From NCBI RefSeq assembly GCF_035594765.1, contig NC_085842.1, positions 157,617,036 to 157,681,035 of the forward strand: a DNA stretch of 64,000 bases. Direction: 5' to 3'. The translations under genes were made by a program, and so were the position numbers. This document shows, one piece after another, positions 9,045-42,483 of the stretch; position 1 is the first letter of the stretch, and the number at the start of each line of letters is the position of its first letter. The DNA comes from Anolis carolinensis (lineage: Eukaryota). Under the pieces are notes generated by a model that did not search any database, was not told where the DNA came from, and saw only the letters and a list, made by a program, of their open reading frames with translations.

Positions 9045-9095
<51 letters not shown>

Positions 9096-9353: not shown

Positions 9354-9402
<49 letters not shown>

Positions 9403-11911: not shown

Positions 11912-12165
11912 AGGTTGCTGTGAGTTTTCCGGGCTCTATAGCCATGTTCTAGAAGCATTCTCTCCTGACGTTTCACCCTTATCTATGGCAGAGGTATCCT
12001 CAGAGGTGTATATATCTGTGGAATGTCCAGGGTGGGAGAAAGAAAGAACTCTTGTTTGTTAGAGGCAAGCGTGAATGTTGCAATTGGCCAGCTTGATTAC
12101 CATTGAATAGCCTTGCCGCTTCAAAGCCTGTCCGCTCCCTACCTGGGGGGATCCTTTGTTGGGGG
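11912..12165 (-). mobile_element. Penelope-like pLTR fragment, solo
   Basis: Same family as the GIY-YIG-bearing copy at 28.9-30.5 kb; contains the hammerhead motif. Confidence 0.8.
11962..12006 (-). ncRNA. Minimal hammerhead ribozyme motif, core intact but stem II altered
   Basis: Reverse complement reads cct-CTGAGGA-tacctctgccatagataagggt-GAAAC-GTC-agg. Confidence 0.55.
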
Positions 12166-12199
12166 GATGCCTCAGAAAACTAGAAATTCTCCTTCCTCA

Positions 12200-12560
12200 G
12201 GCCAGAGAGCACCACAGCGCCCTCTGCTGCCAAACCGATGAAACCTCGGAGGTTGTTACTGTCACTTTAATACTCTGCCAGCTTCCCATTGGCTGGAAGA
12301 TTGGAACATTCCTGCATGTCGAACGGCAACTCGAGGTCGCGATTGGCTGTTCTGAACGCTGCAGGATACTTCCTGGAATGTCTGCGAGCCAACAAGGCTG
12401 TTTCCTCGGAAAAGTGCTGGGGGACCTTCTCGTGTTCAAAATGTAATTGGTTGCCTTGGAATTGCTGGTAAGGAAAATGCTTAAAAAACACACCAGTATC
12501 TTTGGTATTTTGGAAATAGTGTATAAATAAATGCGGACGCTGCAGGGCTGGACGCAGGAT
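12200..12560 (+). promoter_or_regulatory. CpG-retaining promoter and probable non-coding first exon of NABP2
   Basis: Four ATTGG (inverted CCAAT) boxes at ~12288, 12300, 12342 and 12446; CTCF-like GCGCCCTCTGCTG at 12217; donor CTG|gtaagg at 12467/12468; local CpG enrichment. Confidence 0.6.
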
Positions 12561-13080
12561 CCATGTTCTTTAAGGGTAAATCTCTGCCTGTCAGCACGTT
12601 TTAATAAGTTGTTTCATTGCAGTTTTTAACCCATTCATTCTTCTGTTGTCATTTTTATCGGGGTGTAGGAATTAACCGATCCGGAGTGCATCTCCATTGT
12701 AGAATGATTCGATTTGACCCCACCTGGGCTGCCATGGCACAGTGCTGTGAAATCCTGAGATTTGTAGTTTGGCGAGGCACCACCAGCATCCTTTAGTAAA
12801 GAAGGTAAAGAGCCATGCAGATCTACAGCTCCCATGATTCCATCGCATTGAGCCATGGCAGTTACCAAGCGGGGTCAAACCGCAGTAATTGCACAGTGGA
12901 GATGCAGCTTCAGCCACTTGGTGCTTTGCACAGAAAGGAAAGCTGGAGTCAAAAGAACTCACCAGATGGTCCATTTTGTTTTGCTTTTGATCAGAACTTG
13001 AAATTGACTAAAAACAAGGGAAGGTGTCTTTTTCTGAATTGTCCCCTGGATAATGATGCCGTGTTTATTATTATTTTATT

Positions 13081-13292
13081 ATGACACAACAAACAAGATA
13101 GATATGCTGGATTTCGTATCACAAAATCACAAGTCGAACACTTCCCAAGTGTCTAGGACTGTGTGATGTATTTTCGGATGATGCGCGCAGATCCCAGTAG
13201 GGTGGCCTTTTGCAGTTGGCAGATTGTGATTTTGTCAATGTCTATTGTTTCCAAATGCTGGCTGAGATCTTTTGGCACGGCACCCAATGTGC
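13081..13292 (-). mobile_element. R4/Dong 3' fragment in a (TTA)n tract
   Basis: Encodes the same C-terminus (TLGAVPKDLS..ARIIRKYITQS) and 3'UTR; flanked by TTA/TAA microsatellites. Confidence 0.9.
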
Positions 13293-13321
13293 AGATCATA
13301 TTATTATTATTATTATTATTC

Positions 13322-13354
<33 letters not shown>

Positions 13355-13460
13355 TTATTATTATTAATGTTATTATTATTATTATTATATTTATATCCCA
13401 CTTTTCTCTCTTAAAATAGAATCAAATCAGCAAAAATACTAAAAACAATACGCTATACAA

Positions 13461-14109
13461 TGTGTTGTCGAAGGCTTTCATGGCCGGAATCACTGGGTTG
13501 CTGTGAGTTTTCCGGCCTGTGTAGCCATGTTCCAGAATCATTCTCTCCTGAAATTTCGCCCACAACTATGGCAAGCATCCTTAGAGGTGATACGGTCAGT
13601 TGGAAACTAGTAAGTGGGGTTTATGTATCTGTGGAATGTCCTGGGTGGGAGAAAAAACGCTCGTCTGTTTTTGGTGAGCGTGAATGTTGCAATTGGCCAC
13701 CTTGCTTAGCTGCCAGTATTAAAAATTGGCTTCCAGTGTTGAAAAATTATAAAATAAGAACAGTACATAAAGAACAACACTAAAAAAGGGAATTCCAGAC
13801 AGGAAACAATCAGGGACAGCTAACACCTCCCAATAAAGGATTCCCCAAGGCAGGAAGCAGTGAGGTTTTGAAGCTGCAAGGCTATGCAATTCTAATCAAG
13901 GTGGCCAATTGCAACATTCACACGAGCCTCAAACAGACAAGTTCTTTCTCCTACCCTAAACATTATTCCACAGATATATAAATCCACTTGCCTGGTTTTC
14001 CAACAGACCTCACAACCTCTGAGGATGCCTGCCATAGATGTGGGTGAAACGTCAGAAGAGAATGTTTTTGGAACATGGCCATACAGCCCGGAAAATTAAC
14101 AACAACCCA
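13461..14109. mobile_element. Penelope-like inverted pair
   Basis: Minus arm ~13461-13710, plus arm ~13711-14109; ATACAAT repeated at both flanks. Confidence 0.85.
14016..14058 (+). ncRNA. Minimal type I hammerhead ribozyme motif, core intact
   Basis: cct-CTGAGGA-t-gcctgc-catagat-gtgggt-GAAAC-GTC-aga. Confidence 0.7.
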
Positions 14110-14559
14110 ATACAATATACAACTTAAAAGTCTAAAACACTAAAATAGAATTAAACTAGGAACCTTTCTCCTGAGATTTCAGTTAAAATAGCATCTTGTG
14201 TCCTACATTCAAAACAGGTAAAAATAGTCGCTGTGCGGACAGAACTGGAGTTGCAACTTTCACAAAATACCAGGATGGGTGTATAATTTGTATCATAATT
14301 ATGTGAGTATCCATAACCATGGGAATAACAAGCGCAATAATGTTTTCTCTGTGTCTGGTTGGGAGCATAGGGTGGTGAATCTGGTTTTGCCTGTCCCCAT
14401 CCCTGTAGAATCTGATTTGGGATCATTCAACTGAAGAGGTTGCAACTTCTCCTGCTTTTTAAAATGACTTATGTCAAAGACTGTAAATACAGAACAAGGG
14501 AATGTGCAACATGGTTTGATCTTGAGTTGTAACCAGTAAGGACACTGATGAGATTATCA

Positions 14560-14855
14560 CAATCAGGGCCAGCTAACACCTCCCAACAAAGGATCCCCCC
14601 CGGGCAGGAAGCAGCCAGGCTTTGAAGCTGCAAGGCTATTCAGTGCTCATCAAGGTGGCCAACTGCAACATTCACACTTGCCTCAAGCAGGCAAGAGTTC
14701 TTTTTCCCACCCTGCACATAATTCCAGAGATATATAAATAAACCCCACTTGCCTAGTTTCCAACAGACCTCACAACCTTCGAGGATGCCTGCCATAGATG
14801 TGGCCGAATGCTTCTGGAATATGGCCAGACAGCCTGGAAAACTCACAGCAACCCA
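14560..14855 (+). mobile_element. Penelope-like pLTR fragment, solo
   Basis: Family similarity; internal deletion in the ribozyme motif. Confidence 0.8.
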
Positions 14856-16739
14856 ATATACTATTATTTAGAGTTTTATAGTCTGATAGCGATAACAACT
14901 TCTGTGACATCAGAATGGAGTTCTTTTTCAAACTAAAAATAACTATAGACATTTGTTTTGTTTTACATTCCTTTTTGTAGAGCAATGCTTAAAATACCCA
15001 TAGGTATTATCTTTAAAAATTCCAAATGCCGTAAAGAAAAACCTAACAAAATAACTCCTGATGTATATAAATGCCCACCCAACCACCCAGATGATGCTGA
15101 TATTGCATATGTGTCTGTATGTTTTCAGACCAGGACAATATAAAGGTGGTCTGAAACATTTGCCTTGTAGATTGTCATTGTGACTAATAATGGTTTCATG
15201 AAACTACTAAAGGATTTACAGCCTGATGATCCCAGACTGTGGAATTCATAGTCTGTACAAACTACAAAACACTTGTAGTTTGATCTTTGGTTTTTTTTAG
15301 CTGAATTTTGTTGTATTCATATTGGATCCCATGTTGTGAGAAACGTGGAATATGAACCAACTCATATTCAGATAGTTGCCAGAACTATGGCAATATTCTT
15401 TTTTAGATTTTGATTAGAGTTCATACTCAGGTCACAAAAAAAGCCACCAAAATGATCCTTGTAGTAAGTGTTTGTGGATTTAAAGTCCAAAATACCTGCA
15501 AGATTAAACATCCAAATCGACAAAACAGTGATACCTTTATTAGGCCAACCGAAAATACACAATGTAAGCTTTCGAAGCACCGCTTGACTTAGGCCCCTTC
15601 TACACTGCCATATAATCCAGTTTGAAGAAGATAATCTGGATTTTATATGGCAGTGTAGAAGGGTCCATTCTCATTGAAAAAGCGTTTTGAAAGCGTGCAT
15701 ACTATATTTTGTACGTGTTTGGTCTGCTATCCAGCTCATAGAGCTGGAGACAAATTTCTTCAAAGTTCAGAGTCCTTTATGTATGCATTATCTCATGTAC
15801 GGAGCTTCCAGACAGGCCCTATATCCCAGGATTTCATCCCAGGTTTTCTGCTTTAAATTGGATTATATGAGTCCACACTGCCAGATAATACAGCAAAGTT
15901 GAGATCACATCCTGGGATATAGGGCCTATCTGGAAGAGCCCTACATTTTCAAAACAGTTTAGCCATCTCTGTTTTACATATACAGGATTCAACATTTTAT
16001 TTTATAACAAAAGCTGATCTATATTGTTTCCTGGATATCTACATGTTTTTCATGAGTATTTTTGGATGCATACTGCAAGTCGCTTCTGGTGTGAGAGAAT
16101 CAGCCATCTGCAAAGACGTTGCCCAGGGGATTCCCAGATGTGTTATGATCCTGTGGGAAGGCTTCTCTTTTGGTCAAAGGAAATCTAGTATTATATCAAG
16201 TTTTCTAACTTTGTGTGTGTGTTTTTTAAAAAAATACATTATAACTGTACCCCCAATTTGTTTCAGACATGATAAATAAATAAAATTTGTATTTTTGCTA
16301 CAGATTTGCTGTTTGAAAATGATTTCCTCTACTTTTAATTCTTTTGAACACACAGCAGATTATATGAACAATTAAAATATTCTGTTTAACCACTACTGTA
16401 GGCACACTTCTGAAAAGTTTATGATTCTGTCCAGGTTTTTTATTGGTTTAGGTGTTTTTCCTGGTAGATTAAAAAAGTAGTAAGACTATAGATACTTCAA
16501 TCTACAAGCCAAGAGTACAAGCTGTGGTTGTGGGATTTGTGGAAATGTAATGATAGAATGAACCACTCATATCAGGACAGTATGGAATATAACTTCTATG
16601 TCCTTAGTAAAAAAAAAAAAAGGGGGGGGGGCACAGGATTGAAATAAAGCAACAATGATTCAGTTCAGCATTAAAATAAAATAAAAACATTGTCCACTGT
16701 AGACAACATGTTTTTGTTTGTTCCACTTGCTACTTGTGA

Positions 16740-23672
<6,933 letters not shown>

Positions 23673-25957
23673 CAGGCGAGGGATTAAGGGGTGCTTTTAT
23701 AGCTCTTTCATCCTCTATCTGTCTGTTGTGCTACCTTTTCTTACCTGCTGATCAGTACTGAGGAGATGATACGGAGTAGAAGAGATAGAACCAGGCAGGT
23801 GCAGAGACTCTGAAATCAACTTAAGTCTAGCCATTCACATGTGCTTTGAACATGTGATGCTGCCCAGGGAAGATATATGATCTCCAACGTGTTTCTAGTG
23901 ATGTTCCAGGTCAACTTTGTTATCCCCCCCAAGGATTTGCCATTTATGTACTGGCAGGAAATTAAAAAGTTTTAATTCCTTCTGTGTACCTCCTGTGCTA
24001 TGGGCATGGCTCCTTGAATCAGTTCCTGTTTCCAACTCTAAAATCCTTAAAACATGACTGTGGATGCATGGTTACATCTATAAAAACTGCTTCAGGTTTT
24101 AGGATTGTGGGCTAAGACAGTAGTGTTTGACTGTCCAAGAATGCGTTAGCCCTAGGAGGCCTTGTACAGAGGAGGTATACATAAGCAAACAAACAATTTA
24201 AGCCCATTTTCCCAAGGCAGACTTATCCATTGTTAAAACTATCCCAGACTAGGATAATAAGAAGGCACTGTTTGTCCAAAGATGATATTGATTGGTATTA
24301 CATGCATGTTTCTATGGATGTAAGTACAGTATGTTAAAAGTGCAGCGAAACTGTCAAGAAAAGAAATATTAGTTTTTTAAAGAATTTGTCATAGGAAACA
24401 CAACATTTTGTTGCTTAATGAATGGATTATTTTGCTGAGAACTTGAAATGGGACTGTATTTTTATTTTAGAAGGCTTCAACATGGCTAATGTTTTATTTC
24501 AGAAAACTTAAGTGTGGCTGGTCTTGAGAGTTGGCATGCATTGGGATCGGTGACACCATTTTGGTTCTTATCCATTTCTAGATGTAATTAAGTCACAGGG
24601 GATGCATAGGTTGGCCAGGTCTTTGTATGAAATAAACCTTCACAGACTTCCCTGTGGCAGTTTTGTGGGAAATTTAAATTAATACTTTGCGCTCCTCATC
24701 AGATATACTTCTCCCACACACAACTTAAGTAAAGTGCCCACAGTCCACAAAAGTCTTGGTTTCAGTTATCTGAAAGATCACAGAAGAACTGCCTACATCA
24801 GCAAAGAGTATAATACATATTTTGAAAGGAGAATAGACTGAAATAGTAACACTACAACTTTTGCCAAAGTAAACACAATTTCTCCAAAGCCAATAATAGG
24901 TAAAAATAAATGTCTTAACTTTTTTGTAATTGTGGCTTAATTGCAAGTGCTGAACTATATTTTAAACTATTCTAAAATGTTGTTTTAACTTGCGGTTCTG
25001 GTCCTACCCTCCTCTGTTCTCCACTTCCAAAAACAATTCCTTGACTTTCTTAACTGAAAGATTTTGCTTTTCAGTGTGTTTTTAAATAAAGAAATATCAC
25101 TATTGTCTAATTCTGATGTGGCTGTTTGAATGTAGCATCTATGAATGTTTGGAAAATAAATATTTTAATTGGCCTCTTGATCTGGTAAAAGTACCGTAAT
25201 TGTGCGATTCCATTGAAACTAAGGATACGAGTGTTCATGTTGGCTTACAGATCTAGGACAAACGGACATAATAGCATAGCTAACAATATCTCAGTTGATA
25301 TAGCAATTTGACATGTAGCAACTGTTTTAAGATTAGACAGCCTTAAGGGAAGTAATGTGAGTTATATGCAGCTCCTGGATAGGTTTACTCAGTGGTATGG
25401 AAAAGGTGGGCACATTAGGGGCATATGCAGATATGCCACTTTTTTTCTTTTTCTCAAAAGTTACGACATTTGGGACAGCTTGCCTTAGTCCTTTTTCATA
25501 TCCAATTTCGAGTTGGTGTTGTGTGTTTGCTGTAATTAAATTGCATGGTGCTGCTTTCATGAGGCCTATTCACACCACATGATTATGGCACCACAATTCC
25601 ACTTTAACTGTCATGCTTCCATCCTCTGAGTTGCTGGTACTTGTAGTTTGGTCAAGGGCAAGCGAATTCTGAATGCCTTTCTCTCAACTGCAGCTCCCAG
25701 GATTTACACTATGCAGTCATGGAAGTTGAAGTTGAATCATAGCACTGTAACTGTGTCGTATGAATGGGCCCCTGGATATGGAAATAATGTTTAAAATGTA
25801 TTTTTAATATTTATGCCTCTTCACTCAAAAATTATTCATTAGCTGCAACAGGTCACACAAAAAGGATAAAAGCACAGCAACCATACCCAGCAACAAGCTC
25901 AGGGGCAATACTGTTCATATGTATTTTAGCAGTATCACTCAAAATATGTGAATTACT

Positions 25958-26540
25958 TGGCTGCTGTGAGTCTTCCAGGCTGTATGGCCATGTTCCAGAA
26001 GTATTCTCTCCTGATGTTCCGCCAATATCTATAGCAGGCATCCTCAGAAGTTGTGAGGTCTGTTGGAAACTAGGCAAGTGAGGTTTATATATCTGTGGAA
26101 TGTTCAGGGTGGGAGAAAGAATTCTTGTCTGCCTGAGGCAGGTGTGAATGTTCCACTTGGCCGGCTTGATTAGTATTGAGTAGTCTTGCAGCTTCAAAGC
26201 CTGTCTGCTTCCTGCCTGGAGGATCCTTTGTTAGGAAGTGTTAGCTGGCCCTGATTGTTTCCTGTCTGGAATTTCCCTGTTTTCTAAGTCTTGTTCTTTA
26301 TTTACTGTCCTGATTTTAGGTTTGTTTTTTTTAATACTGGTAGCCAGTTCTTTCTCCCAATCTGGACTTTCCACAGATATGCAAACCCCAATTGCCTAGT
26401 TTCCAACAGACCTCACAACCTCTGAGGATGCCTGCCATAGATGTGGGTCAGGAGAGAATGCTTCTGGATCGTAGCCATACAACTCGGAAAACTCACAGCA
26501 ACTCAGTGATTCCGGCCATGAAAGCCTTTGACAACATACA
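25958..26540. mobile_element. Penelope-like inverted pair
   Basis: Minus arm to ~26346, plus arm ~26346-26540. Confidence 0.85.
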
Positions 26541-26956
26541 CATTAGATATGGATCCCATGTCTAAACCGTCAATAACTGAAGTTTCATAGATAACCTTCT
26601 ACACATAGCCTTAAGATTACCTTTCCTATGATATTTTTAACATTTTGTGCACAAATGTGTCCCTGAACCACTTGAAGCAAAGGTGTGACTACCTTAGCCA
26701 CCCACCTGGATGGTTTCAGACTTTGGAGTATTTTGGATTTCTGATTTAGACATGCTCAACCTATATAAACTATTCCAGAGTACTATATATAGCTTTGGGG
26801 ACACCTAGAAAGTTGAACCACAAAGTGTGGAATGGAACACAGTTTTTCTTGGGGTGCATCTACACCATTTTAACTGCCATAGCTCCCTGCTATAGGATGA
26901 TAGAAGTTGTAGGTTGGTGAGGTGCCATCACTCTTCGGCAAAGAAAGCTAAAGGCT

Positions 26957-27281
26957 GGGTTGCTGTGAGTTTTCCGGGCTGTATGGCCATGTTCCAGAAG
27001 CATCCTCAGAGGTTGTGAGGTTTGTTGGAAACGAGTCAAGTGAGGTTTATATATCTCTGAAATAATGTCCAGGGTAGGAGAACTCTTGTCGGTTGGAGGC
27101 AAGTGTGAATGTTGCTGTTGGCCACCTTGATTAGCATTGAATGGCCGTGCAGCTTCAAGGCCTGGCTGTTTCCTGCTTGGGGGAATCCTTTGCTGGGAGG
27201 TGTTAGCTGGCCCTGATTGTTTTCCTGTCTGGAATTCCCGTTTTCAGAGAGTTGCACATTATTTACTGTCCCGATTTTAGA
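26957..27281 (-). mobile_element. Penelope-like pLTR fragment nested in a palindromic MITE (26851-27372)
   Basis: Family similarity; splits the MITE arms. Confidence 0.8.
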
Positions 27282-27379
27282 GGCCTTGCAAAACTACAAC
27301 TCCCAAGCTATAACACTGAGCCATGGCAGTTCAAGTGCTGTGAAACCGCGTTAATTCTACAGTGTAGGTGAGTGCCGAA

Positions 27380-28030
27380 AGAGGCGGGAGGTGAACCAGG
27401 GCACGGCTCCTTCACCCACTTGTTGATAGCCACGTTGCACTCCGAAAGGGACGAGTTGAGCTTGAGCTTTCCAAATTCACATACTGCACACTTTTTTGTA
27501 AGTGGGCGGGAAAAGCCAGTCTTCGAGAAAGGCGTGGCCGACTGGCAGCCACGCCTCCTTAAACATAAACGCGCCCACTTTCACTCCCTGGCCACGCCTC
27601 CTTTCGCCTAGCCACGCCCATGCCCCATCGGCCAACCGCACTGTTCGCCACGCGAGCCGAGGGGCCCTGAGGGGGTCCTTGAACAAGATTGAGTCGTCTT
27701 GAACGCGCCTGTATTGCAGAGAGGCCGCTTTTTTCTGCGGGAGTTCAACAAAAGGTGTTCGAGAAGCGCAAAATCAGGGTGCGTGGTACGGCCGTGGGTC
27801 ATCTTTCTCGTGTGGCGTTGACAAAGTTGGACCAGGGGAAGACTTCAGTAATCAGGCAGTAATTGGACACCCGCAAAGAAGAGGCATCTCTGAGGCGCCG
27901 ATGTAGCCGGCACTGAGTTGGGGATTGAGGCGGTCTCGGGTCTCGCGGTGAGAGCAGCGTGTTGGAGGACCGGGGAGATCACTGTAGGAAGCAACGGAGG
28001 CATTTAAAGTGGGTAGTAGGTCAGGAAGTC
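27380..28030 (+). promoter_or_regulatory. CpG island promoter and non-coding exon 1 region of CNPY2
   Basis: CpG-rich, with a GC box and six GCCACG/CGTGGC motifs, ~3 kb upstream of the ATG exon, which has its own acceptor. Confidence 0.7.
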
Positions 28031-28590
28031 TGTGGGGTCCACCCACACTGCACAGTTAATGCAGTTCGGTACCACTTTAATGCAATAGAATAATGGGAGG
28101 CACCAGCACTCTTTGGCAGAGAAAGCTCAGGGCTTGTAAAACTACAATTCCCGTGATTCCATCGCGTTGAGCTAAAGCGGGGTCGAACTGCATTAATTCT
28201 ACCGTGTAGGTCACATCCTGGGTTGGACTTCCTTCCTCTCAGCCACGCATTGCCTCCATCAAATGGGGATAAATCGCAATGGCCTCCCTTGCAGGTTGTT
28301 GGGAAGGTCAGGGAGATTCTGCATTGCACGTCTTGGAAGTCTTGTTGTTAAAGAGGACGCTCCCGACCAGTGGTCGGTTCTCCAAGAATATTGCACTACA
28401 ACAGAGGGGAGCAGGCAGATTAAGGATGGTGCAGGTTCTCTCTGAGAATATGTATACATGGAATACCAACACTTGCAGGGCGATGGGACATAGTTTTCTG
28501 TCGGGGGAAGATGCAGGCCAGGAATGGTGATGGCCAAACAATGGAGGATTGTTATGTTTTCAGTACAGAATGAGAGAACAACTCAACGTA

Positions 28591-28899
28591 CAGTAGAGTC
28601 TCACTTATCCAACATAAACGGGCCGGCAGAACGTTGGATAAGCGAGTATGTTGGATAATAAGGAGGGATTAAGGAAAAGCCTATTAAACATCAAATTAGG
28701 TAATGATTTTACAAATTAAGCACCAAAAACATCATGTTATACAACAAATTTGACAGAAAAAGTAGTTCAATACGCAGTATTGCTATGTAGTAATGACTGT
28801 ATTTACGAATTTAGCACCAAAATATCATGATGTATTGAAAACATTGACTACAAAAATGCATTGAATAATCCAGAACGTTAGATAAGTGAGACTCTACTG
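28591..28899. mobile_element. Tc1/mariner-superfamily (pogo/Tigger-like) MITE
   Basis: TIR CAGTAGAGTCTCACTTATC; TA TSD. Confidence 0.88.
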
Positions 28900-28910
28900 T
28901 ATATCCCACA

Positions 28911-30488
28911 GAGTTGCTGTGAGTTTTCCAGGCTGTATGGCCATGTTCCAGAAGCATTTTCTCCTGACGTTTCACCCACATCTATGACATGCATTCTCAG
29001 AGGTTGTGAGATATATTAGAAACTAGCTCAGTGAGGTTTATATATCTCTGGAAGGTCCAGGGTAGGAGAAGGAACTCTTGTCTGTTGGAGGCAAGTCTAA
29101 ATGTTTCAATCAGCCAGCTTGATTAGTAGTGAATAGCCTTGCAGCTTCAAAGCCTGGCTGCTTCCTTCCCGGGGATCCTTTGTTGGGAGATGTTAGCTGG
29201 CCCTGGTTATTTCCTGTCTGGAATTCCCCTGTCTTCTGAGTGTTCTTTATTTACTGTCCTGATTTTAGAGGTTTTTAAATACTGGTAGCCAGATTTTGTT
29301 CATGGTTTCCTACTTTCTCTTGAAATTATCCACATGCTTGTGGATTTCAGTGGCTTCCCTGTGTAGTCTGACACTATAGTTGTTATAGTGGTCCAGCATT
29401 TCAGTGTTCTCAAATAATATTATGTGTCCAGGTTGGTTCATCAAGTGCTCTGCTATGGCTGACTTCTCTGGTTGAGCTCATCTGCAGTGTCTTTCATGTT
29501 TCTTGATATTCATGTTCACTTAATGAACCAACCTGGACACAGCATATTATTTGGAAACACAGAAATGCTGGACCACTCTAACAACCACCATGTTAGACTA
29601 CACAGAGAAGCCACTGAAATCCACTAACAATGTGGACAATTTCAGCAGAAACAAGGAAACCATGAAAATGAACAATATCTGGCTACCAGTATTTAAAAAC
29701 TCTAAAATCAGGACAGTAAATAAAGAACAACATTCTGAAGCCAGAGGAATTCCAGACATGAAACAATCAAGGCCAGCTAACACCTCCCAACAAAGGATAC
29801 CCCCCAGGCAGGAAACAGCCAGGCTTTATCGCTACAAGGCCATTAAATGCTAATCAAGGTGGTCAATAGCAACATTCACACTTGCCTCAAATCGGCAAAA
29901 GTTCTTTCTCCCACCCTGGACTTTTCACAGATACAGTAGAGTCTCACTAATCCAAGCTTCACTTATCCAAGCTTCTGTATTATCCAAGGCAGTCTGCCTT
30001 TTAGTAGTCATTGTTTTTGTAGTAAATGTTGCAATGTTTTGGTGCCAAATTAGTAAATACAGTAATTACTACATAACAGTACTGTGTATTGAACTGCTTT
30101 TTCTGTCAATTTCTTGTAAAACATGATGTTTTGGTGCTTAATTTGTAAAATCATAATGTAATTTTTTCTTAATCCCTCTTTATTATCCAAGATTTTTGCT
30201 TATCCAATGAGCACCAACCCCTAGAGTCGGTCACGACTGGACTTAATGTCAGGGAAAACTTTACCTTTTTAAAAATGTTCTGCCGGCCCGTTTATCTTGG
30301 ATAAGTGAGACTCTACTGTATATATAAACCCAACTTGCCTTGTTTCCAACAGACCTCACAACCTCTGAGGATGCCTGTCATAGATGTGGCGACACGTCAG
30401 GAGAGAATGCTTCTGGAACATGGCCATACAGCCCGGAAAACTCACAACAACCCACTGGTTCTAGCCATGAAAGCCTTCAACAACACAT
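28911..30488. mobile_element. Largest Penelope-like inverted pair, with GIY-YIG C-terminal remnants, interrupted by a Tigger-like MITE
   Basis: Minus arm (to ~29510) encodes KHERH..QPEKSAIAEHLMNQPGH; plus arm (from ~29520) encodes MNQPGHSILF..MLDHSNNHHVRLHREATEI. Both match the C-terminal half of a PLE GIY-YIG endonuclease. Confidence 0.85.
29934..30318. mobile_element. Related Tigger-like MITE in opposite orientation, containing a Sauria SINE 3' fragment (~30207-30268)
   Basis: Same TIRs and TA TSD; inserted into a TATA of the Penelope arm. Confidence 0.85.
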
Positions 30489-31104
30489 TGACTAAACTGG
30501 CAACAACTTATTGGTCCAAAGCATCTAATGGACCAAAGTTTGGGAGCAACTGCACTACAAGTTCCATTACTCCAGCCAGTATGGTCATAGGAGATGAGCA
30601 GGCAGATTAAGAATGGCGCAGGATCTCTCAGACAATATATATTCCTGGAATACCAACACTTACAGGGCGATGGGATACAGTTTTTGTTGAGGGAAGATGC
30701 AGGCTAGGGATGCTGATGGCCAAACAATTGAGGATTATTATGCTTTCAGTACAAATTGAGAAAACAACATCTATCCCACAGAGTCAGTAAGGGAAGACAC
30801 AGGGAACACTCTGGGAACCAAAAATAACGGTTGCCTATGGACAGTTTGCACAAAGAGCACTTTGTGCTTTAGACCTGAGCCTTGGCAGCAAATGCTACCT
30901 TCCAGAATACAGCTTAGCATAGTATGCTGTATTAAAGCAGCCCTGGATGAATATGAAGGGACACATGCACATATTTTGAAGTTTTGTGTAGTTTTTCCTT
31001 CTAATTCAAGAAGTTTGCTTTGGGATTTCAAGAAGCAGCTTGAAATAGCTTCCATAATGTCTGACTTTCCATGCAGATTGTGGCTCTTGCCCCCACCCAC
31101 AAAG

Positions 31105-31204
31105 ATGAATAGGTGGATTTTGAGCACGGCTTGCCGCTCCATAATCCTCCTGCTGCTTTTGAGCGGTGCTTTTGCCCGGAGGAGTCAAGATCTCCGCTGT
31201 GGAG
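31105..31204 (+). CDS. CNPY2: CNPY2 coding exon 1 (exon starts ~31077)
   Basis: MNRWILSTACRSIILLLLLSGAFARRSQDLRCG; G|gtaaac. Confidence 0.92.
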
Positions 31205-34200
31205 GTAAACTAACCTATTTTCTCATTGATTTCATTCATAATGTGGAGTAGATAACATTTGAAAAATATGAATTCAAAAATAATGATATGCCAGCTCCTT
31301 TCAAACTTTTTTTCTTCTGTAAATTCTTTCCATACTGGCCCAGTCTACTGATTTTTCTGAGATTTTTCCTGAGTATAAAGTCTACATTAGATTGCAGGGA
31401 GAGACTGGTATGTTGGGAAAACTGTCTTTTGTGGAAGGTTATCCATAGTTACTGCTAAGTCTCATCTTGAGAAATCCTTGTAGTTCTCCTGAAGAACCTC
31501 AGAGCTACTGTACTTACACTACTGTATGGGCTCCCCAAATATGATTTAAAGGTCACTTCCCATATTGCCCTTTTTCTGGTTTTTAAAATAGAGAATGAAT
31601 TGCCTCTCATAGAAGACTTCAGAACTGTCAATCATCTTTTAAATATGGTAGGTTTTTGGGGGGAGGGGGAATTGCACTATTTAACATCAAAAGGTACTAA
31701 TATTTCAAAACAAGAAGCACACTTGTATTCTTGTTTTGTTCTTCTTTTGGAGCATTTTTGGAATTTGACAGTTCCAGAGGCTGCTCTGTTCTTTAACATG
31801 CAGGCACGAATTATGTTCTGTGTTCTGTCTCTCTCTCATTTCATTGTTGCCTGGAGCCAAAAAGTAAAGCAAGGGAATGCCTTATGATAAGGATACAGAG
31901 TTGGGAGCTGTGGGCTCCACCCACTCACCCGTGGTCTCTCATCTAACTCTTACCATAGGCTAGTGGTTCTCAACCTGTGTTTTGGCTTTCAACTTCCAGA
32001 AATCCTAACAGCTGGTAAACTGGCTAGGATTTCTGCTAGTTGTAGGCCAAAGCACTTGGGGATCCACAGGTTGAAAACCACTGTTATAGACCCTAATCCC
32101 AAGGATCTGTCACTTATCATACATTGCCTACTTTTTGCAGCAGAATTTTCTCACACTACATATACCTCAGCTGTATGCTGTGTGTGCATGCGTGTGAAGC
32201 CCTTTGCCTGTGTCTTGAATGTGTATATTAAGAGGAGGACTTTGCTACAGACATCATTCCTATTCAATAGAATGAAAAGAACCCCTTTATGGAATGCAAC
32301 TTGCCAGCCCTTTCAGGCATGGCTCAGTTCTGAATATAGCTCCAATACATGCCTGGAACCATGTTCTTTCCCCTTCCTAATTGTTCAGCTAACTCATTAC
32401 TTAAACAGTTAAGGATTAACTTATGGGGAGGCTGCTTAATGGTGGTTTCCAAGTGGCATAATTTTTCAGGAGGGGAGGTGGGAGACATGCATATTGGAGT
32501 ATTGTCCTTCATGGTTCAAGAAAGTAGCTGAGGGGATGGGGACTGACAAGCAGCTAAGCAGAATAAAACATAAAAGAGACAGTGGTAAAACCTCTGCTGA
32601 AAAGGTCCTCCCTGAAACCCACTATACAGTAAGACCTATGTCTCCTAATTGATTTTCTCCTCACTATCTACAGCTCTTGTCTCTCTAATGTAGGTTGTAA
32701 ATCCTCTGTTCACGCCTTGCTTAAGTAGTTTTCAGACATATGCACCTTTCCATGAGCTGCTCCCATATTTTGAGGAAAATGTTTGTTTAGTGGCCAAACT
32801 TGGGGACTATTCCTAACATTACTAGTAAACCTCAGAGCTAAAGTTTGTGTGATGGAAGGAAAAAAGGGCAGTTGGATTTATCCCCTATCCCTTGAACTAA
32901 TGAGAGGAGTTGAAAGGGTGAAGTGGAACCTGTTAAAGGTGACATTGAGTAGAATGAGAATATTTGGTGTATTTTTCCAGAAATTTTTATCGTCAGGCTG
33001 GTTAGGAGATGAAGATAATGTGGTTCAATTTTGTGGTAATGTGGGAAGATAGTGAATGTTCTTTTTTTAAAGGTCTATAAGCAATTTACCTTGAATGTGT
33101 TTTTTTATTATTTTCTCTTTCTGCTTTAAGCATGCCGGGCCCTGGTGGATGAGCTGGAGTGGGAAATTTCTCAAGTAGACCCCAAGAAAACCATCCAGAT
33201 AGGTTCCTTTCGCATCAATCCAGATGGAAGTCAGTCCATTGTAGAGGTAACACTTCTCATACTTTCATTATAGTAGTTGAATTTTCAAGGGTTTTGCTGC
33301 AATTCTCAAAATAGGAAGTCAGAGACATGGGCCCTATTTCCCCCATTTGGATTCCTTCTCTAAATCTATATTTAATGTGGCAAGAATGTGCTCCTACTCA
33401 GAAGGAGATAGGATAATCCCCAGCATTTTATATTTAATGTTGTCACAGTAAATAGAAATATTTTTCCTGTAATACCAACACTGCTGAAAATTCTGATTCA
33501 GAGTTCAATAACAGAATCCATAAAATTGCAGCGTAGATGTGAAAATATGTCAAAACTGTTCAGCATTATCTCCCAGGATATTTTTTCCAGGATATTCTAT
33601 ATGCTCCTTGGTTTTAACTGAATTTTAAAACTGACTGATGCTTTTCTGTTGAAAGAATTTAAAAATATATTTTATGATAGATGGTTTAGGAGCCTTAGTG
33701 TGCAAAACAGTAATTAGTAATGAATGATTTAATAAAGAAACCAAACAATTAGGTGAACATTTAGCAGCTCCATGTTCACTGCAAACAAGCAAAGCTGCAA
33801 AAATGATAGAAACTAAAGTATGCTCCTGCCCCTAAAAGCTATCTATAAATAGGCTTTTGCATACCTTTTTAGTGCAAACATACAGTTGTATTCGGATGTT
33901 GCTTTACAAGATCCTGATAAACTTTAATTGACTGTGAGTAGTAGACAGGTTTTTTTCCCAATCCTCCTAAGCACCTGTCAGACAGGTGTTCCTCAAATGT
34001 CAGAGCTCTGTTTGTAGCAGTACTTTCATATCTGCCTCTGAGAAGGCTAATGGAAAAATAATTTTAGCTCTTTTTAATATTACATCTTGGAGAACTACTT
34101 ACAGAGATTTGGAGCTGATTTCAGAAGGCCCTGCCTTCTTCCTTCAGCAATTACAGGATGTCCTTGACAAGATCTTTGATCTTAAATAAGAATGTCCCTA

Positions 34201-37200
34201 CAGTGATTGAGATGCTCTCTGAGACCTACAGATCCCAAGGGAAGAAGTATTTGAAAGCCAACATTTACAGCATGAATGCTTGTACTAGCAGCATTGTGGA
34301 TGTAGTTGAAAATCTTCAAACGTTAGAGGCAAAGCTGAGAGCATAATGAAAGGGATCTTGGAGTCAGGATTTCTGGAGTTTTTATTCCTGACACTGTATT
34401 GTAAAAGTTTCAGCTGGGTTGCTAATGCATTTGTCTACAGCAGAGAAATTAGGCGTTTCATAAGCTCCTGTTGGCTCCTGTTTTATGTGTGATTATACTG
34501 TTTTTGTGTGATGATGTTCGTGTTGTCCAGTTTATCTAAATGATTGGCGACTCCTCAGTGGTAGGTTGTGTGAAACAGCCCTAAAGATCACTTGTTGAAC
34601 CTCCAGCAACTGGTAATAGAGTGGGAAAATGGCTGGATTTTTTCCCAGATAATGGAAGAGATGGTGTGCTTTTTCCTGTAGGTGCCCTATGCCAGGTCTG
34701 AAGCTCACTTGACAGAACTGTTGGAGCGTGTCTGTGAGAAGATGAATGACTATGGAGAGAAAGTAGACACTTCTACCAGCCGGAAAAACTATGTGAGAGT
34801 GATCTCTCATGACGGAACCAAGATGGATCTTTCTGAAACCAAAATTGATGGTGATGTGACATCCAGCCTGAAGTTTGCAGTGAGTAATACATGGAATGAA
34901 GTTGGGTTAGGGACTATCCTTGTAGATTTGGATTACTAGGGGAAAATGCTGGATCCTCCTGGCTGTGTGGTCTTCTTCCTGTGTTTGAATGTTTTACTTG
35001 GGAATGTACAGTCTGTGACCCATGACTGTTCTGGGTGCAGCTGAGGAAATGGTTACAGAAAACAGGATAAAAGGAGCCTATAAAGTAAGGATGAAAAATC
35101 TGTGGCCTTGCAGACATTTTTGGGATCTGTGTCCAGAATCAGTAGAAATTGTAATCCAATAAAATCCAACAAAATCAGCAGGCACAAAGTCTCTTTCATG
35201 GTTGCCGAAAGAGCAACCATGATGTATGTATGGGTTACATACAAAGACTGTCTAACTCTTCTGAAAATATAGGGATAGTTTTAAGGGTTATAAGATATCA
35301 AGGTAATCTCTCAGTGATTACAGCACATTTAAAACTCGAGGGAATCTTTTTAATTCAGAGATTGCATACAATGTATCTGTGACAATGCATATATTTGGTA
35401 ACCATAAAAGATGAATAAGATCCTACCCACGCTTTTCCTGTCCTGAACAATCTCTCTCTTTTTTTTTCCTGTCCTGAACAATCTCTCATATGCTGGGATT
35501 ATGCTTCTTTGTGCACCTTTTTGGTACAATAGTGTCTCACTTATCCAACATAAACGGGCCAGCAGAATGTTGGATAAGCGAATATGTTGGATAATAAGGA
35601 GGGATTAAGGAAAAGCCTATTAAACATCAAATTAGGTTATGATTTTACAAATTAAGCACCAAAACATCATGTTATACATCAAATTTGACAGAAAAAGTAG
35701 TTCAATACGCAGTAATGCTATGTAGTAATTACTGTATTTACGAATTTAGCACCAAAATATCACGATGTATTGAAAACATTGACTACAAAAATGCATTGGA
35801 TAATCCAGAACGTCGGATAAGTGAGACTCTACTGTATATATTTTTATGGTTGAAGCTCTGAGCTGGCCTAACATTGGTGGGTTGAAAAATAGGCTTGCTT
35901 AGTATACCCTTTGGATGGGGAGCAGGGATGTGGAAAACTGACTGGCCGATCTCCTTGGATCTCCTGTGCAGTGTGAGAGCATAGCTGAAGAGTATGAAGA
36001 TGAGCTCATAGAATTCTTCTCCCATGAGGCAGAAAATGTCAAGGACCGACTATGCAGCAAACGAACAGGTAAGCATGAGGTCATCCACTGAAAGAATAGG
36101 TTGTCCATCATTAAGAGTAGAAAGCATACACAGTAGCTTATAATACCATCTGTGTAGTTCAGAGGATAGGAAGTATGGCTGCACTGCTGAGTTGATTGGT
36201 CAGTTAGATTAAAAATGACTGATCAATTTTTAAAACTCACTCACTTGATTGGGCAGCCCATGCTTTTAAATACACACACACACTTGCAGTAATAACAACA
36301 CCAACAACAAAACCTTTGCTGTCATAACGTGTATGGAAAGAAATTCCCTTGATTCAGAGAGAAAATAATTATGTTCTAAAATAGCACCTTGTGCCTAGAA
36401 TAATGTGTCTTGTGTGCACAATCTTAAATGAAGTAAAGAACATTCTCTTTTGTAGAAGTGTTGTTTAATACATACGTTTCAAACTTGTCCGATCAATGGA
36501 CTAAGATTTTTTTCACCCAGGTGATGGTCCTAGACAAGCTTGAGTTCATATTTGAGTATGCACAAGTTAAATCTTATTTCAGTAGATCTGTACATTTCCC
36601 ACAAGAAATATCTGACCCAAGAACAATGAATAATATGTTCTGTTTGTTAGCAGACAGGAACAGTACATTGTTAGCCAAAAAGTCAAATCTGAGCCCTTGT
36701 ATGCCCTACAGCAGAATGGGCAACCTGTAAAATACCTCTACCTAATTTCTTGTTGCCCTCAGTCTTGTCTGAAATGCCCTCTGCAAGTGATCAGTTCACA
36801 TATCTGTGAGCAACCTGTTGCTCCTACAGCAGTCCTCTAGTTAGGGAGGGAAGGTGGTTGCAATGGATCAACAGCTGACAGTGGCAGAAACAAGAGAACC
36901 AGCTTCTCAATTTGGGGTTAATTCCTTACCCATCACTTGACTTTGAGCTCACCAGATCACATCATGCAGCTTCCAAAAGTTACCATGAGGGGCCTCTAGG
37001 TATTGTTGAACTGTAGTTGTCAGTCTTAGCCAGCATGGTTGCCTCATAATGGGAGCTGCATTCCAGCAAAATATGAAAAGCTGTGAGTTGCCCAATCCTC
37101 AATTACTTGAGGAGAATGCAGCTGTCAGGAGAAAAAAGGCTCTCAATTGCTGTCCTATATCTTTGTTTCTATGTCTCAGTTTAGACATTAACACCAAAAT

Positions 37201-39517
37201 TGTTTCTATTAACTATCATTTAGGATGCATACTGTGGTTTTGATTTGTAAAGTTAATGTGTTAATGTTAGAGCTGTGAGTTTAAGAGCAGGGAAACCAAG
37301 GTTTAAATCCTTGTTCAGGCTAATGTTGAGCCAGAAACTCTGGCAGCTTAAACTATATACAGAACAGTTGTGAGGATAAATATGAAGGAAGACATCTGAG
37401 GTCCTTGGAAGAAGGACAGTGAGATGTAAACATGACAAGACAAACAGACACACCTTGCTCTAGAACTTTTTTTGATTATGTTGTTCATCTTTTCAGTACT
37501 CAGCTTTGTTTATTCGCTGTAGTGTCCATACGGTGGCTGCCTCTGGTGGTAGAGCAAAGTCGGGGCATTAGGATTTTTCAGTTTCATCCTTGCTCCAAAT
37601 GCGATGAGCAGGATTGTGGTTTGTGAAGCCATTTCAGATTGTGGTTTACAATTTCAATTTGCCAGCCAATTTCAAACTATCATTGCAATAACAATAACAT
37701 TATCCAACAGAACAATTTGTTTTGGTTTTTTTGGCGTTTCAATGTTAAACCTGTTCAGAACATTGCATTGCATAGACCAATTTATAAAATTATTTCTTTG
37801 GTATGAAATAAGTAGATTTTCATGCAGTACACTTCTTTTAATTTTTAATATGTTTCCTTCATACTTAAAAAGACATTAATTTAAACACATTAAAATATCC
37901 TGATTATTTATAGGTGAGCAGAGTGAAGAGTAGTATATGGCATATCTTTTGTATCTCAAAAACTAAACTGATCGGAGAAAACTGGTGCCAGTTTTGGAAT
38001 TATCAGGTCAAATATACTCCGAAACAGATCTAAAATTTGAGCACCAAACTGTGTGTTGTAATTGATCTTTGACTGTTTGATGTGATATTTGCATAATTTA
38101 TTTTGGAATACCGTGGCCCTATGTAAACTTCCATATAATGCAGTTTTGTAATGCAGTATAAGTGTATTGAACTACATTATATAGTAGTATAGATGGACCT
38201 TTGACTTTTGAATTATTTGCTTGCCTGGCAGGAAATACACTTTCAGTAGCATAATTAAAATATTGCTCTTGTAAAACAGCTTCTTCTGTTTTGGGGCTTA
38301 GGCTAAGTTATACTTCTTTTATTGTCTCAAAGTGTCCAGGAAACCTAAATTATTTGCAGTTGGAAGAATGCTGAGATACTCTTTTCTTTTATAAGCCCCT
38401 TCAGATAATTTTGAGTCCCCTTTTCCTTTTCCCCCCCGCATCTCTGGATTTTCACTGCCTGTGAGTAGAGTGTCCAGCAGCCAGTTGACAGCATGTTGTT
38501 CAGGAAACTGGCTCTTCCTGTAACATTGAGCTATTTTTGGACAACAAACCTGACTGTGCTGGTTTCCACCTGACCTTTCCCCTCTAGTGTTTGAGGACTC
38601 AAGGCATGCTGTGGCAGTGCTGCCAAAGTACAGCACCTATTTCTGACACTCAGAATCGTATGTGGTGCTTTGTTTCACAATAGGCTTCCTGGAGTATCCA
38701 GCCAAGGAATTAACACACAAATCCTCCTGTTTTAGGTGAAAAGCTGACTTAACCGAGGAGGTCTAGACAAAGTCACTTCTTAATAGCCATTAATGCTGTT
38801 ATAGATCAACAAGATGAGGCTGGCAGCTGTTGTTGGCAGACATAAGTGGCCTTAATGATTGGCTCGCAGCCAAATCAATTGCATATTCACCTGATCTGGC
38901 CATACAAACTATTTGCCAAAGCTGTTGGGATTGCGTAGCTAGTCTCATGATGTTCATGGTATTTAGATAAGTTAACCCTGTACGATCCCATGATCTCAGA
39001 GCAATTGCTAAGTCATCGTTGGCTCAATTTCTATTCACAACAGAGAAGGGAGATTTTAAGCCTTATTTTTCCATCAAGTAAAAAATGGCTTGAACCAAAC
39101 AGCTTTGAAAAGAGGAGCCAGACTGAGAGAAGTGTTTCAACAAGGAACAATAGAATGAATATCGCAAAATGATCATGGGCTTCTCTTGCTATCTCTATTT
39201 GACTCACAATATCTTGTATTTGCTCCCTCGGGATTTCACAAACATATAGATGTGGCCTGCAAATTTTTTCATTCACAATATGACTGCAGGCAGGCATTAT
39301 GTGGATTAGCAGGTCATACATTTGGTAGGCATAGAATTATGCAACATCGTTATACTGCTAGTTCATGTTATTATGATATACTGTGATATTGAGTAAACCT
39401 GAATCAGCCTGCCTGTCTAGCTGGAAGTTCCAGTACTTGTACTAAGTTACTTGTTTTTGTGCTTCCTTTGTAGATCTTTGTGACCACGCCTTGCATCTCT
39501 CACACGATGAATTGTGA
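31105..39517 (+). CDS. CNPY2: Protein canopy homolog 2 (ER saposin-like protein, MSAP), spliced CDS, 184 aa
   Basis: Exons 31105-31204, 33131-33246, 34682-34879, 35972-36068 and 39474-39517 (555 nt, GT-AG). Signal peptide, then ARRSQDLRCGACRALVDELEWEI...VPYARSEAHLTELLE...CESIAEEYEDELIEFFS...DLCDHALHLSHDEL; C-terminal HDEL retention signal. Confidence 0.96.
31961..32083. mobile_element. hAT MITE, same family, internally deleted
   Basis: TIRs and core similarity. Confidence 0.8.
33131..33246 (+). CDS. CNPY2: CNPY2 coding exon 2
   Basis: taag|CA; CRALVDELEWEISQVDPKKTIQIGSFRINPDGSQSIVE; |gtaac. Confidence 0.95.
34682..34879 (+). CDS. CNPY2: CNPY2 coding exon 3
   Basis: gtag|; VPYARSEAHLTELLERVCEKMNDYGEK...SSLKFA; |gtgagt. 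Confidence 0.95.
35527..35834. mobile_element. Tigger-like MITE
   Basis: Near-identical to 28591-28899; TA TSD. Confidence 0.88.
35972..36068 (+). CDS. CNPY2: CNPY2 coding exon 4
   Basis: gcag|; CESIAEEYEDELIEFFSHEAENVKDRLCSKRT; G|gtaagc. Confidence 0.95.
39474..39517 (+). CDS. CNPY2: CNPY2 last coding exon
   Basis: gtag|AT; LCDHALHLSHDEL-TGA. Confidence 0.95.
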
Positions 39518-42219
39518 AATGCAGTGGCTTGATGAATGGGTTTATTAGTCCTTTGAAGACCACCTCCCTTTTTCCAGTTCCTCTAAGTCTGTTCCAGAAA
39601 CCTCATTTCCATTTTGGGATGTGCTCGCTACATTCAGTCTGGAAACCAACGAACTGACATGTAAAAGAATACACGAGCAAAGCTTCTTTGTAGACTTTCT
39701 TTAGGAAAACAAAAGATGCTGTGTCCCCATTTGACTTTTTGTAAAATCTCTCATGTGGAACAGAAGAAACTTCCATTTCAGGAGTGCGGTTCATTTTTTC
39801 TACTGCATTGACAATGATTCTGTGTTGCAAAGTTTTTTTAAAAAATGCTATTGTCATTCTGCAGATTAATTAATCTGTAGGTTGAGCCACATAATTCATG
39901 GATTCCCTCCAAAGTTCACTAAAACTTGAATCATTGAATCTTATGAGTTCTATTGTTATTCTGCTACTATTTTATCATGACACTAGGCAGATGATTCCAT
40001 TTCTCTATGTAATCTCTTGAAGAGCATAATTGAAGAAGGCCCCCCACTTATTCATTCCAAACAAGGAGCTACTGTAAGGAGGATCAGTCAATGGCATAAG
40101 AGTGAAAAGGTTGACCAGCCACGTGGAGGCCCAAGAAGCTGTTGCCAGTAACTGTTTCACGCTGTTGGTGTAATAGTAGGGTTACTTCTTGGATTTGTTG
40201 GATTTGTCTTGGATATGGGAAATTCATATGAACCAGATGAGCTAGGTCGCAAGCCAGTCTGAACAGAATGCCTGTAAAGAAGTGATTCCAAGTTCTCTTT
40301 GAACCAGTGGGCTGACCTTTGGGAAAGGCCAATATCCATCTTATAGAGTCCAAGAAGGTACTGGTTTGAAGCATTAAGCATTTGGAAAATTAGGGAAAGG
40401 TGGGTCATATTCTTCAAAGGGCTTTTTAAACATTTGATATCTTTTCTTCTTATCACCTATTTTCAGGATTTTGGATTAAAAGTCTGTCAGTGATGGCAAG
40501 AAAATAAATCATGCTGTGATTCAACTGGAGTTGTAAAAGATTATTAAGATAATAGATGGGATGCATTTTGGATACTGAAAATGCAATATATAAATGCAGC
40601 ATATTACCATGTAATGAGAGTGGTTTTCAAGTGCCTTGCAGAATTTTCTTACTGCTTTCTTCCATTATGCATGTTGTGGTATTTTCTGAATTTGATGTAT
40701 CTTTGAGTGTTGAAGGGCCTGACTGATCCAAAGCTGGGACCTCTGGGACTTAAAATGCTTGGAGACAGAAAAACAAATGTGGTTAAATTCCTTTTTCTCA
40801 CCTATTTATCATTAACTGACTGATATAGTATGCCTCTCTCTGCTTCCTCCACCTTAATTTTCCTTCTCCTAAACCTTGGATTACAACTCTTGCTACCTAA
40901 GCATGTTATGCCTTACTATTTTGCCCATGGGATAGTGTAACGTATCTGATTTCTAATTAATGTGGGCAGTGAAGGAAGATTAGAACAAATTATGATTGCA
41001 AATTACTTATTAATAAGTAACTTAAGCACAACATTTAATACATTTGTATAATTGCTGTGTTGCCTATTTGGAAGAGGAAACTATCCTCTTCCTAATAGGC
41101 TTGTTTCAGTAGTTGCTCCCTAACATTAATTGTAACAGTGTTCTCTTAAATGTTAGTCCCCAAAATGCTTCAGGACTGCTGATTTTGGAGGAAATAAGAA
41201 AGCTAGTGGAAAAAGCCGATCATGAATGGATGGAACGGCAGATTTGGTAGCAAGAGCATATTCCAAAAGTGACCTGTTGAAATACAACTGGCGGACATAA
41301 AAGAAAAATCCGAAAGGTGGAGGAGATCCTACATTGTGGGGATAATTCATTGCTATAGAAGACTAAATTGCCCTTAAAAAGTTTCCAAAACCTTTGGAAA
41401 CTTCCATTGGTTCAGAATGTACCAGTCAGAATACTATTTTGTGTTAAAATATTCTGCTCATGTGATCTCAGTATTGTTTCAGCAGCTCCTGCGCTACATG
41501 TCAACTCCCAAGCCCAATTTAAAGTGCTGGTCTCTATTTAAGGCTATAAATAGCCAAGGACCAGGATAACCTGAGGGCAGCTTCTTTCCATGTTCAGGGA
41601 TTTCACCTCTACTCTCAGAATCACACTGATATCCATTGAAGCTGCGGATAACATACCTTGGAAGAAAAATAAACTTTCAGGGCAAGATTGACTGCAACCG
41701 TCCAGATGTTTGAATTGCAACTCCATAATTCTTCACTTTTGGTTATGCTGGCTGGGGTGAAAACTGAATTAAACTATGTGGCAGTCATAGCTGCCATCTT
41801 GTTAGAGAAGTAAAATATTACTTTCAAAATAGTTATTTGTTTTCTCTTTAAGACAAGCTGAAATGGGATGACTACCCTCCCACCTCACTCCACCAAGTAC
41901 AGAAAGTTTACCAAAAAAATCCCTTCCATACAGAAAAAGTGTTTCCACAACTGTCCCAAAAGAGACAGGAGTGAATGAAAATGCCATTTGGACAAGGAAT
42001 GCTGCTACAATGACCTGCTTTTGGTTCATGCTGGGGACTCTGTACTCTTATCACACATTTGCTGCATGAGGGCCATCAGGACACTGACTAACAGCAGGAT
42101 ATGTGTTTGAGGCTTGGCAGCGAACGCAGCATGGGAAGGCAGCGGCCCAAATGGCAGTAGACAGAGTTCAGTGGTGTGACACTGTCTGCCCAGCTCATAG
42201 AATATCGTTCATTCTATAG

Positions 42220-42483
42220 TAATTCCCTCAGGCAGGAAGCAGCCAGGCTTTGAATTTACAAGGCCATTAAATGTTAATCGAGGTGATCAGTTGCAACATT
42301 CACACTTGCCTCAAACAGATGAGTTCTTTCTCCCAACCTGGACTTTCCAGATATATAAACTCCACTTGCCTAGTTTCCAACAGACCTCACAACTCTGAGG
42401 GTACCTGCCATAGATATGGGTGAAACATCAGGAGAGAATGCTTCTGGAACATGGTCACACAGTCCAGAAAACACAGCAACCCA
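42220..42483 (+). mobile_element. Penelope-like pLTR fragment, solo
   Basis: Family similarity. Confidence 0.8.

Follow-up and report, generated by a model that had tools for sequence, protein, structure and literature searches.

The stretch of Anolis carolinensis DNA considered here (contig NC_085842.1, positions 157,617,036 to 157,681,035; 64,000 nucleotides in all, hereafter the window) carries the host genes NABP2 and CNPY2 and, in and around them, 14 copies of a hammerhead ribozyme motif, found by blastn with the 14008-14062 motif as query and each borne on a repeat of 100-400 bp per copy. We consider it very probable that these are the hammerhead of the anole Poseidon element, a Penelope-like retrotransposon, carried on truncated ends of the element that nine insertions left behind, 10 copies making up five head-to-head pairs and four standing singly; they are likely to be inactive relics. 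NABP2 (SOSS-B1) was recognized from an exon matching SOSS-B1 in 45 of 45 residues. CNPY2 has an exon 98% identical to A. carolinensis, with the next species at 92%, and the A. carolinensis CNPY2 protein can be aligned to its exons in turn across 28263-39514. A further gene starting at 43954 we take, from its first exon, to be citrate synthase. Coding exons of NABP2 flank both pair 2 and pair 3, and an intron of CNPY2 contains pair 5. Pair 1 and the copy at 14790 precede the first coding exon of NABP2 and would fall in a 5' intron of that gene, to judge from a GT donor near 12467 and CCAAT boxes near 12290-12345. The family totals 4,234 bp of the window, 13 of the 14 motifs lying within 11.5-31 kb; an anole data set holds 16,208 Penelope insertions (Bourgeois et al., 2020; PMC7561263).

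The element was identified from its coding ends. Two endonuclease remnants lie at 29271-29805, and a protein search with one of them gave four proteins among seven candidates, all from Anolis, the best being an A. carolinensis protein of 836 aa (P0002; 89% identical over the query). P0002 carries a reverse transcriptase (RT) domain (RVT_1, E=9e-14) and a GVY..YIG motif that was read from the sequence, Pfam giving no GIY-YIG match. The remnant at 29271-29507 (pair 5 left arm) aligns with P0002 residues 724-804 at 81% identity and that at 29508-29805 (right arm) with its C-terminus at 69%, and the first 41 residues of P0002 match 13 of the 14 motif copies. Because the order in pair 5 runs from the endonuclease end of the open reading frame (ORF) through a short untranslated region (UTR) and the ribozyme to the ORF start, the repeat is taken to be the pseudo-long terminal repeat (pLTR) of a Penelope/Poseidon element. 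An earlier note, made from this DNA alone, had placed the motifs among the minimal type I hammerheads of Penelope-like pLTRs, and the class is borne out by these matches and this layout. No RT core or catalytic motif of the Poseidon element was found in the window; the Pfam scan covered 300 of 400 stop-to-stop frames of at least 55 aa, the other 100 lying past 45.5 kb.

The Poseidon element, its ribozyme and its tail are already published for this lizard, and the finding is thus already known to family level. Frangieh et al. purified the A. carolinensis Poseidon protein (PAc) and described an ORF that starts at stem II, with the ribozyme cutting after GUC, 26 nt past the ATG, such that ribozyme and start codon overlap (Frangieh et al., 2024; PMC11167929). 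In their assays, the PAc ribozyme gave no cleavage without the element's protein; C3G or G8C alone abolished cleavage, the C3G/G8C double mutant was partially rescued, and insertion in vitro was unaffected by ribozyme mutations (PMC11167929). Compared by eye with the published 361-nt PAc RNA, the window majority is the same from the stem I region through the ribozyme, the sole ribozyme exception being a stem II site that is C/T in the window and C in the published RNA; P0002 starts with the reading frame that this RNA encodes. The window family thus resembles PAc (Repbase Poseidon_Ac) in ribozyme sequence, in the ATG inside the motif with the cut 26 nt downstream of it in the majority, in ORF N-terminus and endonuclease C-terminus, in tail and end positions, and in host genus; it differs in that the window has truncated, mutated fragments only, with no RT core (PMC11167929).

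Aligned, the 14 copies give a majority layout of CCU, CUGAGGA, an extra U, a 6-bp stem II (two G-U pairs included) with a 7-nt loop, GAAA, an ACGU palindrome, GUC and AGG. The anatomy is as the earlier note described it (CUGAGGA and GAAA cores, extra U, 6-bp stem II, ACGU palindrome, short stem I), and each of the 13 places it listed holds a copy by blastn and alignment; the 14th, at 27000-27020(-), lies beyond that list and has some 37-39 nt of the ribozyme gone. The palindromic ACGU "stem III" of that account stands as a palindrome but not as a stem, for a single hammerhead monomer is without a true stem III and has the 4-nt ACGU in its place. The window motifs share with the Penelope-like minimal type I hammerheads, which Cervera and de la Pena defined and found mostly as dispersed solo copies (2014; PMC4209133), the extra base between positions 9 and 10.1, the palindromic 15.2-16.2, the lack of helix III, a long stem II and short stem I, and a dispersed distribution with some close opposite-strand pairs. 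Unlike those motifs, they have a stem I of only 3 bp and a stem II of 6 bp with two G-U pairs; hosts named there include a turtle and snakes (PMC4209133), the present one being an anole.

The 12 core bases (C3 U4 G5 A6 N7 G8 A9, G12 A13 A14 A15.1, U16.1, H17) are all present in the majority sequence, and four of the 14 copies retain every one: 11962(-) (11964-12006), 14019(+) (14016-14056), 22170(-) (22152-22192) and 22235(+) (22215-22255). The first three also keep ACGU, and only 22170(-) has core, palindrome, stem I and stem II all retained. Those three copies had been called intact, which holds for core and palindrome but not as equal intactness: 11962(-) has a 2-nt insertion and a stem II cut to 4 bp and closed by A-U, with a 33-nt deletion just upstream, and 14019(+) reads AGA instead of AGG, for a 2-bp stem I, while keeping its 6-bp stem II. 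Conversely, 22235(+) had been listed as mutated and does read ACAU in place of the palindrome, with A opposite C at the stem II base, yet its core is whole. Core substitutions occur in six copies (14790, among them, also has a deletion) and motif deletions of 7 to ~37-39 nt in four, and the G10.1-C11.1 pair is G-U in 4 of 10 aligned copies. A G-to-A change is common to 11962(-), 22235(+) and 42410(+), turning the start codon into ATA and altering the first stem II pair; in two of the three the changed base faces T and so still pairs.

Table 1. Poseidon fragments, their hammerhead motifs and the host genes of the window.
Feature	Span	Strand	Ribozyme	Remarks
Single pLTR fragment, tailless	11911..12166	-	11964-12006	Core and ACGU intact
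Pair 1 left arm, tailed	13458..13709	-	13547-13587	Broken: G5A, palindrome lost
Pair 1 right arm, tailless	13721..14109	+	14016-14056	Core and ACGU intact; NABP2 strand
Single, tailless	14559..14855	+	14776-14803 (remnant)	C3/U4 changed; 14-nt deletion over cut site
NABP2 (SOSS-B1), start to stop codon	16797..23672	+		Exon match as in text
Pair 2 left arm, tailless	20679..20952	-	20732-20772	Broken: G8A, palindrome lost; NABP2 intron
Pair 2 right arm, tailed	20953..21110	+	21004-21027	17-nt deletion, loop II to GAAA
Pair 3 left arm, tailless	22100..22201	-	22152-22192	Fully intact; antisense, last NABP2 intron
Pair 3 right arm, tail to +117	22208..22340	+	22215-22255	12 core bases kept
Pair 4 left arm, tailless	25952..26352	-	26010-26050	Broken: A13G, palindrome lost; between NABP2 and CNPY2
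Pair 4 right arm, tailed	26346..26536	+	26419-26452	7-nt deletion of GAAA
Single, tailless, absent from earlier list	26956..27279	-		Ribozyme nearly all deleted between ATGC repeats
CNPY2 coding span	28263..39518	+		Host gene, not part of element
Pair 5 left arm, tailless	28907..29507	-	28963-29003	Broken: G8A, stem II damaged; CNPY2 intron
Pair 5 right arm, tailed	29508..30490	+	30362-30401	Broken: A14C; MITE-like insert ~29959-30318 splits arm
Single, tailless	42222..42484	+	42393-42432	Broken: A9G, palindrome lost; downstream of CNPY2

The motif set is not a product of chance, because a 35-nt family pattern with four matches in the window at up to 3 mismatches is absent from 100 shuffles (0 matches). 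A loose CUGANGA..GAAA pattern, with 11 matches versus 5.7 +/- 2.15 expected, is weak and uninformative alone. An Infernal-type hammerhead search, which the earlier note had proposed as a check, gave none: Rfam at gathering score has no match in the whole window, hence no hammerhead family, and at E up to 10 within 11500-31000 there are no hammerhead families among 20 weak matches. These weak matches are microRNA models landing on inverted-repeat hairpins and were discarded. Rfam, then, misses such motifs, and to count motifs overstates insertions, 14 versus nine. The remark that such copies usually go unannotated holds as far as Rfam is concerned; it does not hold for Repbase, where the entry Poseidon_Ac exists, nor for the ribozyme, which is published.

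By substitution, the core decays at the neutral rate of its flanks. Non-CpG substitutions affect 8/137 core positions, 19/323 positions elsewhere in the motif and 97/1300 flanking positions (core versus flanks, Fisher p=0.61; whole motif, p=0.29), with CpG sites changed at ~18%, and no purifying selection on the core is seen in this comparison of core and flank substitutions over the 14 copies. Core-intact copies number 4, where substitutions by themselves would be expected to leave 5.9. In the 10 copies without deletions (the other four being left out), none of nine pairs has a two-sided change from the commonest pair; the covariation score is 0.146, versus 0.155 when shuffled, and 363 of 500 shuffles are as high. 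The earlier note would have let a lack of covariation in stem II count as refutation. None was indeed found, yet the family motif is experimentally validated, and the lack is uninformative because covariation is not to be expected among dead descendants of a single ancestor, so that the test is invalid on them.

In the three intact copies the hammerhead monomer fold lies 5.5-9.3 kcal/mol above the best fold, with a stem I probability of at most 0.02, although stem II reaches 0.97-0.99 in 22170(-); the ACGU self-duplex is worth -1.9 kcal/mol, and folding z-scores of the three best copies are near zero. In plus-strand RNA of each of the five pairs, the prediction has at least 26 of the 41 positions of the plus-strand motif base-paired to the opposite arm. 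The active fold would need either a second copy pairing through ACGU or the element's protein. The earlier note's statement that these motifs cleave efficiently as dimers does not carry over: PAc needs its protein (PMC11167929), and the Schistosoma minimal motif cleaves weakly as dimer or trimer (PMC4209133). No copy in the window appears to have a tandem intact partner on the same strand, and intronic copies on the strand of the host gene would be sequestered by their inverted arms in long hairpins. We are accordingly inclined, with high confidence, to regard the window copies as inactive at this locus. A sequencing-run search with 21600-22700 listed no RNA data set as containing it. Pair 3 is predicted to form a hairpin of ~100 bp at ~90% identity (22094-22307) in the last NABP2 intron, to which the weak microRNA-model matches are due; it might be a substrate of RNA editing or of small-RNA production.

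Several points weigh against the reading of the copies as inactive, neutrally decaying relics of the published element. Most copies differ from the published PAc sequence outside the ribozyme, both upstream of the motif and after the endonuclease, and are probably older Poseidon subfamilies rather than exact PAc copies. The verdict of inactivity draws on sequence and predicted folds, and folding programs do not model the hammerhead core, such that a poor monomer score is expected even of working motifs. Finally, 4 of 7 deletions of at least 5 nt overlap the 41-nt motif, where its expected share is 0.23 (p=0.055, a small, post hoc test on 14 copies, in which the 11962 deletion counts as lying outside the motif, as it ends upstream of stem I), and decay may therefore be not wholly neutral.

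This excess of deletions is also what speaks for an explanation in which intact ribozymes on the transcribed strand are selected against, or RT skips the structured motif, with breaks thereby enriched in the ribozyme. Of the five intronic copies on the transcribed strand, not one has all its helices intact, and the lone fully intact copy is antisense, as such an explanation would have it. On the other hand, breaks also mark three of the four antisense intronic copies, neither the core nor the whole motif is enriched for substitutions, and the deletions are flanked by short repeats (GAA, ATGC), as in ordinary slippage; we judge the explanation unlikely. Much less probable still is that 14019(+), in the putative NABP2 5' intron, continues to cut the pre-mRNA, with Poseidon protein or a second motif acting in trans. 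It does lie on the NABP2 strand with core bases, ACGU and 6-bp stem II kept, and the family ribozyme is protein-assisted (PMC11167929). Its stem I, however, is only 2 bp, the inverted arm 300 nt upstream is predicted to pair with 36 of its 41 positions, neutral decay gives this copy a 0.34 chance of an intact core, and the intron is itself placed from promoter boxes and a GT donor. Moreover, Frangieh et al. saw no RNA-seq reads that end at the PAc cut site (PMC11167929).

The abundance of the ribozyme needs no function: with reverse transcription beginning 55-90 nt past the cut site, nearly any fragment, even one of 100 bp, will include the motif. The 3' ends of the copies fall into two classes counted from the ATG, nine at +84 to ~+92 and five at +115 to +121. 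These may be set against the published PAc start of reverse transcription at 111-118, a second internal site one tail length away and a tail of 30-40 nt (PMC11167929). In the window, a ~33-nt tail is present on exactly one arm in all five pairs and on none of the four singles; were ends chosen independently, one tail in every pair would have a probability of 0.02-0.03. A 12-bp direct repeat flanks pair 3 (22093-22104 and 22341-22352), overlapping the short end by 5 nt. Pair 1 has a weaker candidate, an AT-rich 7-bp repeat overlapping the tail end by 4 nt, and the other seven insertions show 5-6 bp words or none.

Here, too, the window has precedents. Inverted pLTRs with a tail on one of them were described by Arkhipova et al. 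(2013; PMC3846280), and a tail often at one end only by Craig et al. (2021; PMC8557442). The window pairs are the same in kind as those insertions, being 5'-truncated copies placed head to head with a tail of 30-40 bp on one side, and the direct repeats at pairs 3 and 1 are candidates for the short target-site duplications known there; what the window contributes is the count, five of five pairs one-tailed and none of four singles (PMC3846280, PMC8557442). The pairs bear on how a single tail comes to sit on the inverted ends of Penelope-like elements, for which Arkhipova et al. favor self-priming on an antisense template (PMC3846280). A possible though doubtful alternative is that inverted pairs with one tail record twin priming, each target strand being primed at a different start site. 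A Poseidon protein dimer would nick both target strands, priming would use the +84 start site for one end and the +117 start site for the other, and the two complementary DNAs would meet head to head, every pair thereby gaining exactly one tail. For PAc, both target strands are cut and extended and a protein dimer is predicted (PMC11167929).

Against twin priming, the two arms of a pair do not clearly resemble each other more than they resemble other copies: a partner ranks 2-13 of 13 in likeness, and shared non-majority letters average 1.4 in the five pairs versus 0.78 in 86 other comparisons. Neither does the PAc start site differ between strands in vitro (PMC11167929), and self-priming on antisense RNA has already been proposed. 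A literature search found nothing on Penelope twin priming by title or abstract start; subscription journals lay outside this search, and the idea may be in print. The strict one-tail pairing turns the question of inverted ends into a genome-wide count and an in vitro test with the PAc system.

Two further explanations concern what the copies are. Non-LTR (long terminal repeat) retrozymes are likewise short repeats with a type I hammerhead, and a retrozyme family here would be a tandem, non-autonomous, non-coding repeat making circular RNA; retrozymes have been proposed to derive from pLTRs (bioRxiv 10.64898/2026.07.22.740005). Retrozymes, however, form head-to-tail arrays, and the absence of any such array of the motif repeat among 14 tandem-repeat rows contradicts the idea, as do copies that are single or in inverted pairs with ragged 5' ends, pair 5 running into endonuclease coding sequence; we give this reading very little weight. 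That the element's coding sequence gives rise to a hammerhead-like appearance by chance merits next to no credence, for although the motif overlaps ORF codons 1-10 and the missing covariation, near-zero z-scores and empty Rfam result would suit it, C3 to G8 lie upstream of the start codon and the C3G, G8C and double-mutant results refute it for the family (PMC11167929).

Other repeats share the window. A 310-bp repeat with inverted ends, like a miniature inverted-repeat transposable element (MITE), occurs at 28591-28900, 35527-35835 and 55717-56025 with 94-95% identity, and the older MITE-like copy that splits the right arm of pair 5 lies at 29959-30318. That pair is also flanked by a 174-bp direct duplication (28409-28582 and 30596-30768, 87% identical), too long and diverged for an ordinary target-site duplication. 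Short near-perfect hairpin repeats at 19636-19780 and 22868-23005, with weak scores against the mir-5408 model, are probably another MITE family. At 9469-11007(+), a 512-aa frame with an RT end and a zinc-binding domain between (TAA)n runs looks like a 5'-truncated element, presumably a non-LTR element of R4/Dong type, and a 151-bp unit stands in three repeats at 9062-9519. An RT remnant at 6529-7281(+), with a weak RVT_1 match, we take to resemble the long interspersed element RTE/BovB, and 5241-5597(+) is presumably a Sauria short interspersed element.

Outside the window, an annotated A. carolinensis AKAP7 isoform (P0003) ends in a Poseidon endonuclease domain, possibly an exonized element or an annotation artifact. 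Outside copies were sought for the covariation analysis with a core-plus-stem-I pattern, which hit 3 viral and 28 metagenome loci; none of the 31 matches the window by blastn, most look chance-like, and the set was rejected. Four of these viral and metagenome contigs (L002, L004, L008 and L029) carry, a short way ahead of a small ORF, an unrelated hammerhead-like motif whose 7-bp stem II is strong, at about 501-546 (601-646 in L002), and in two of the four a stem C-G pair is replaced by a pair of U-A/A-U type.

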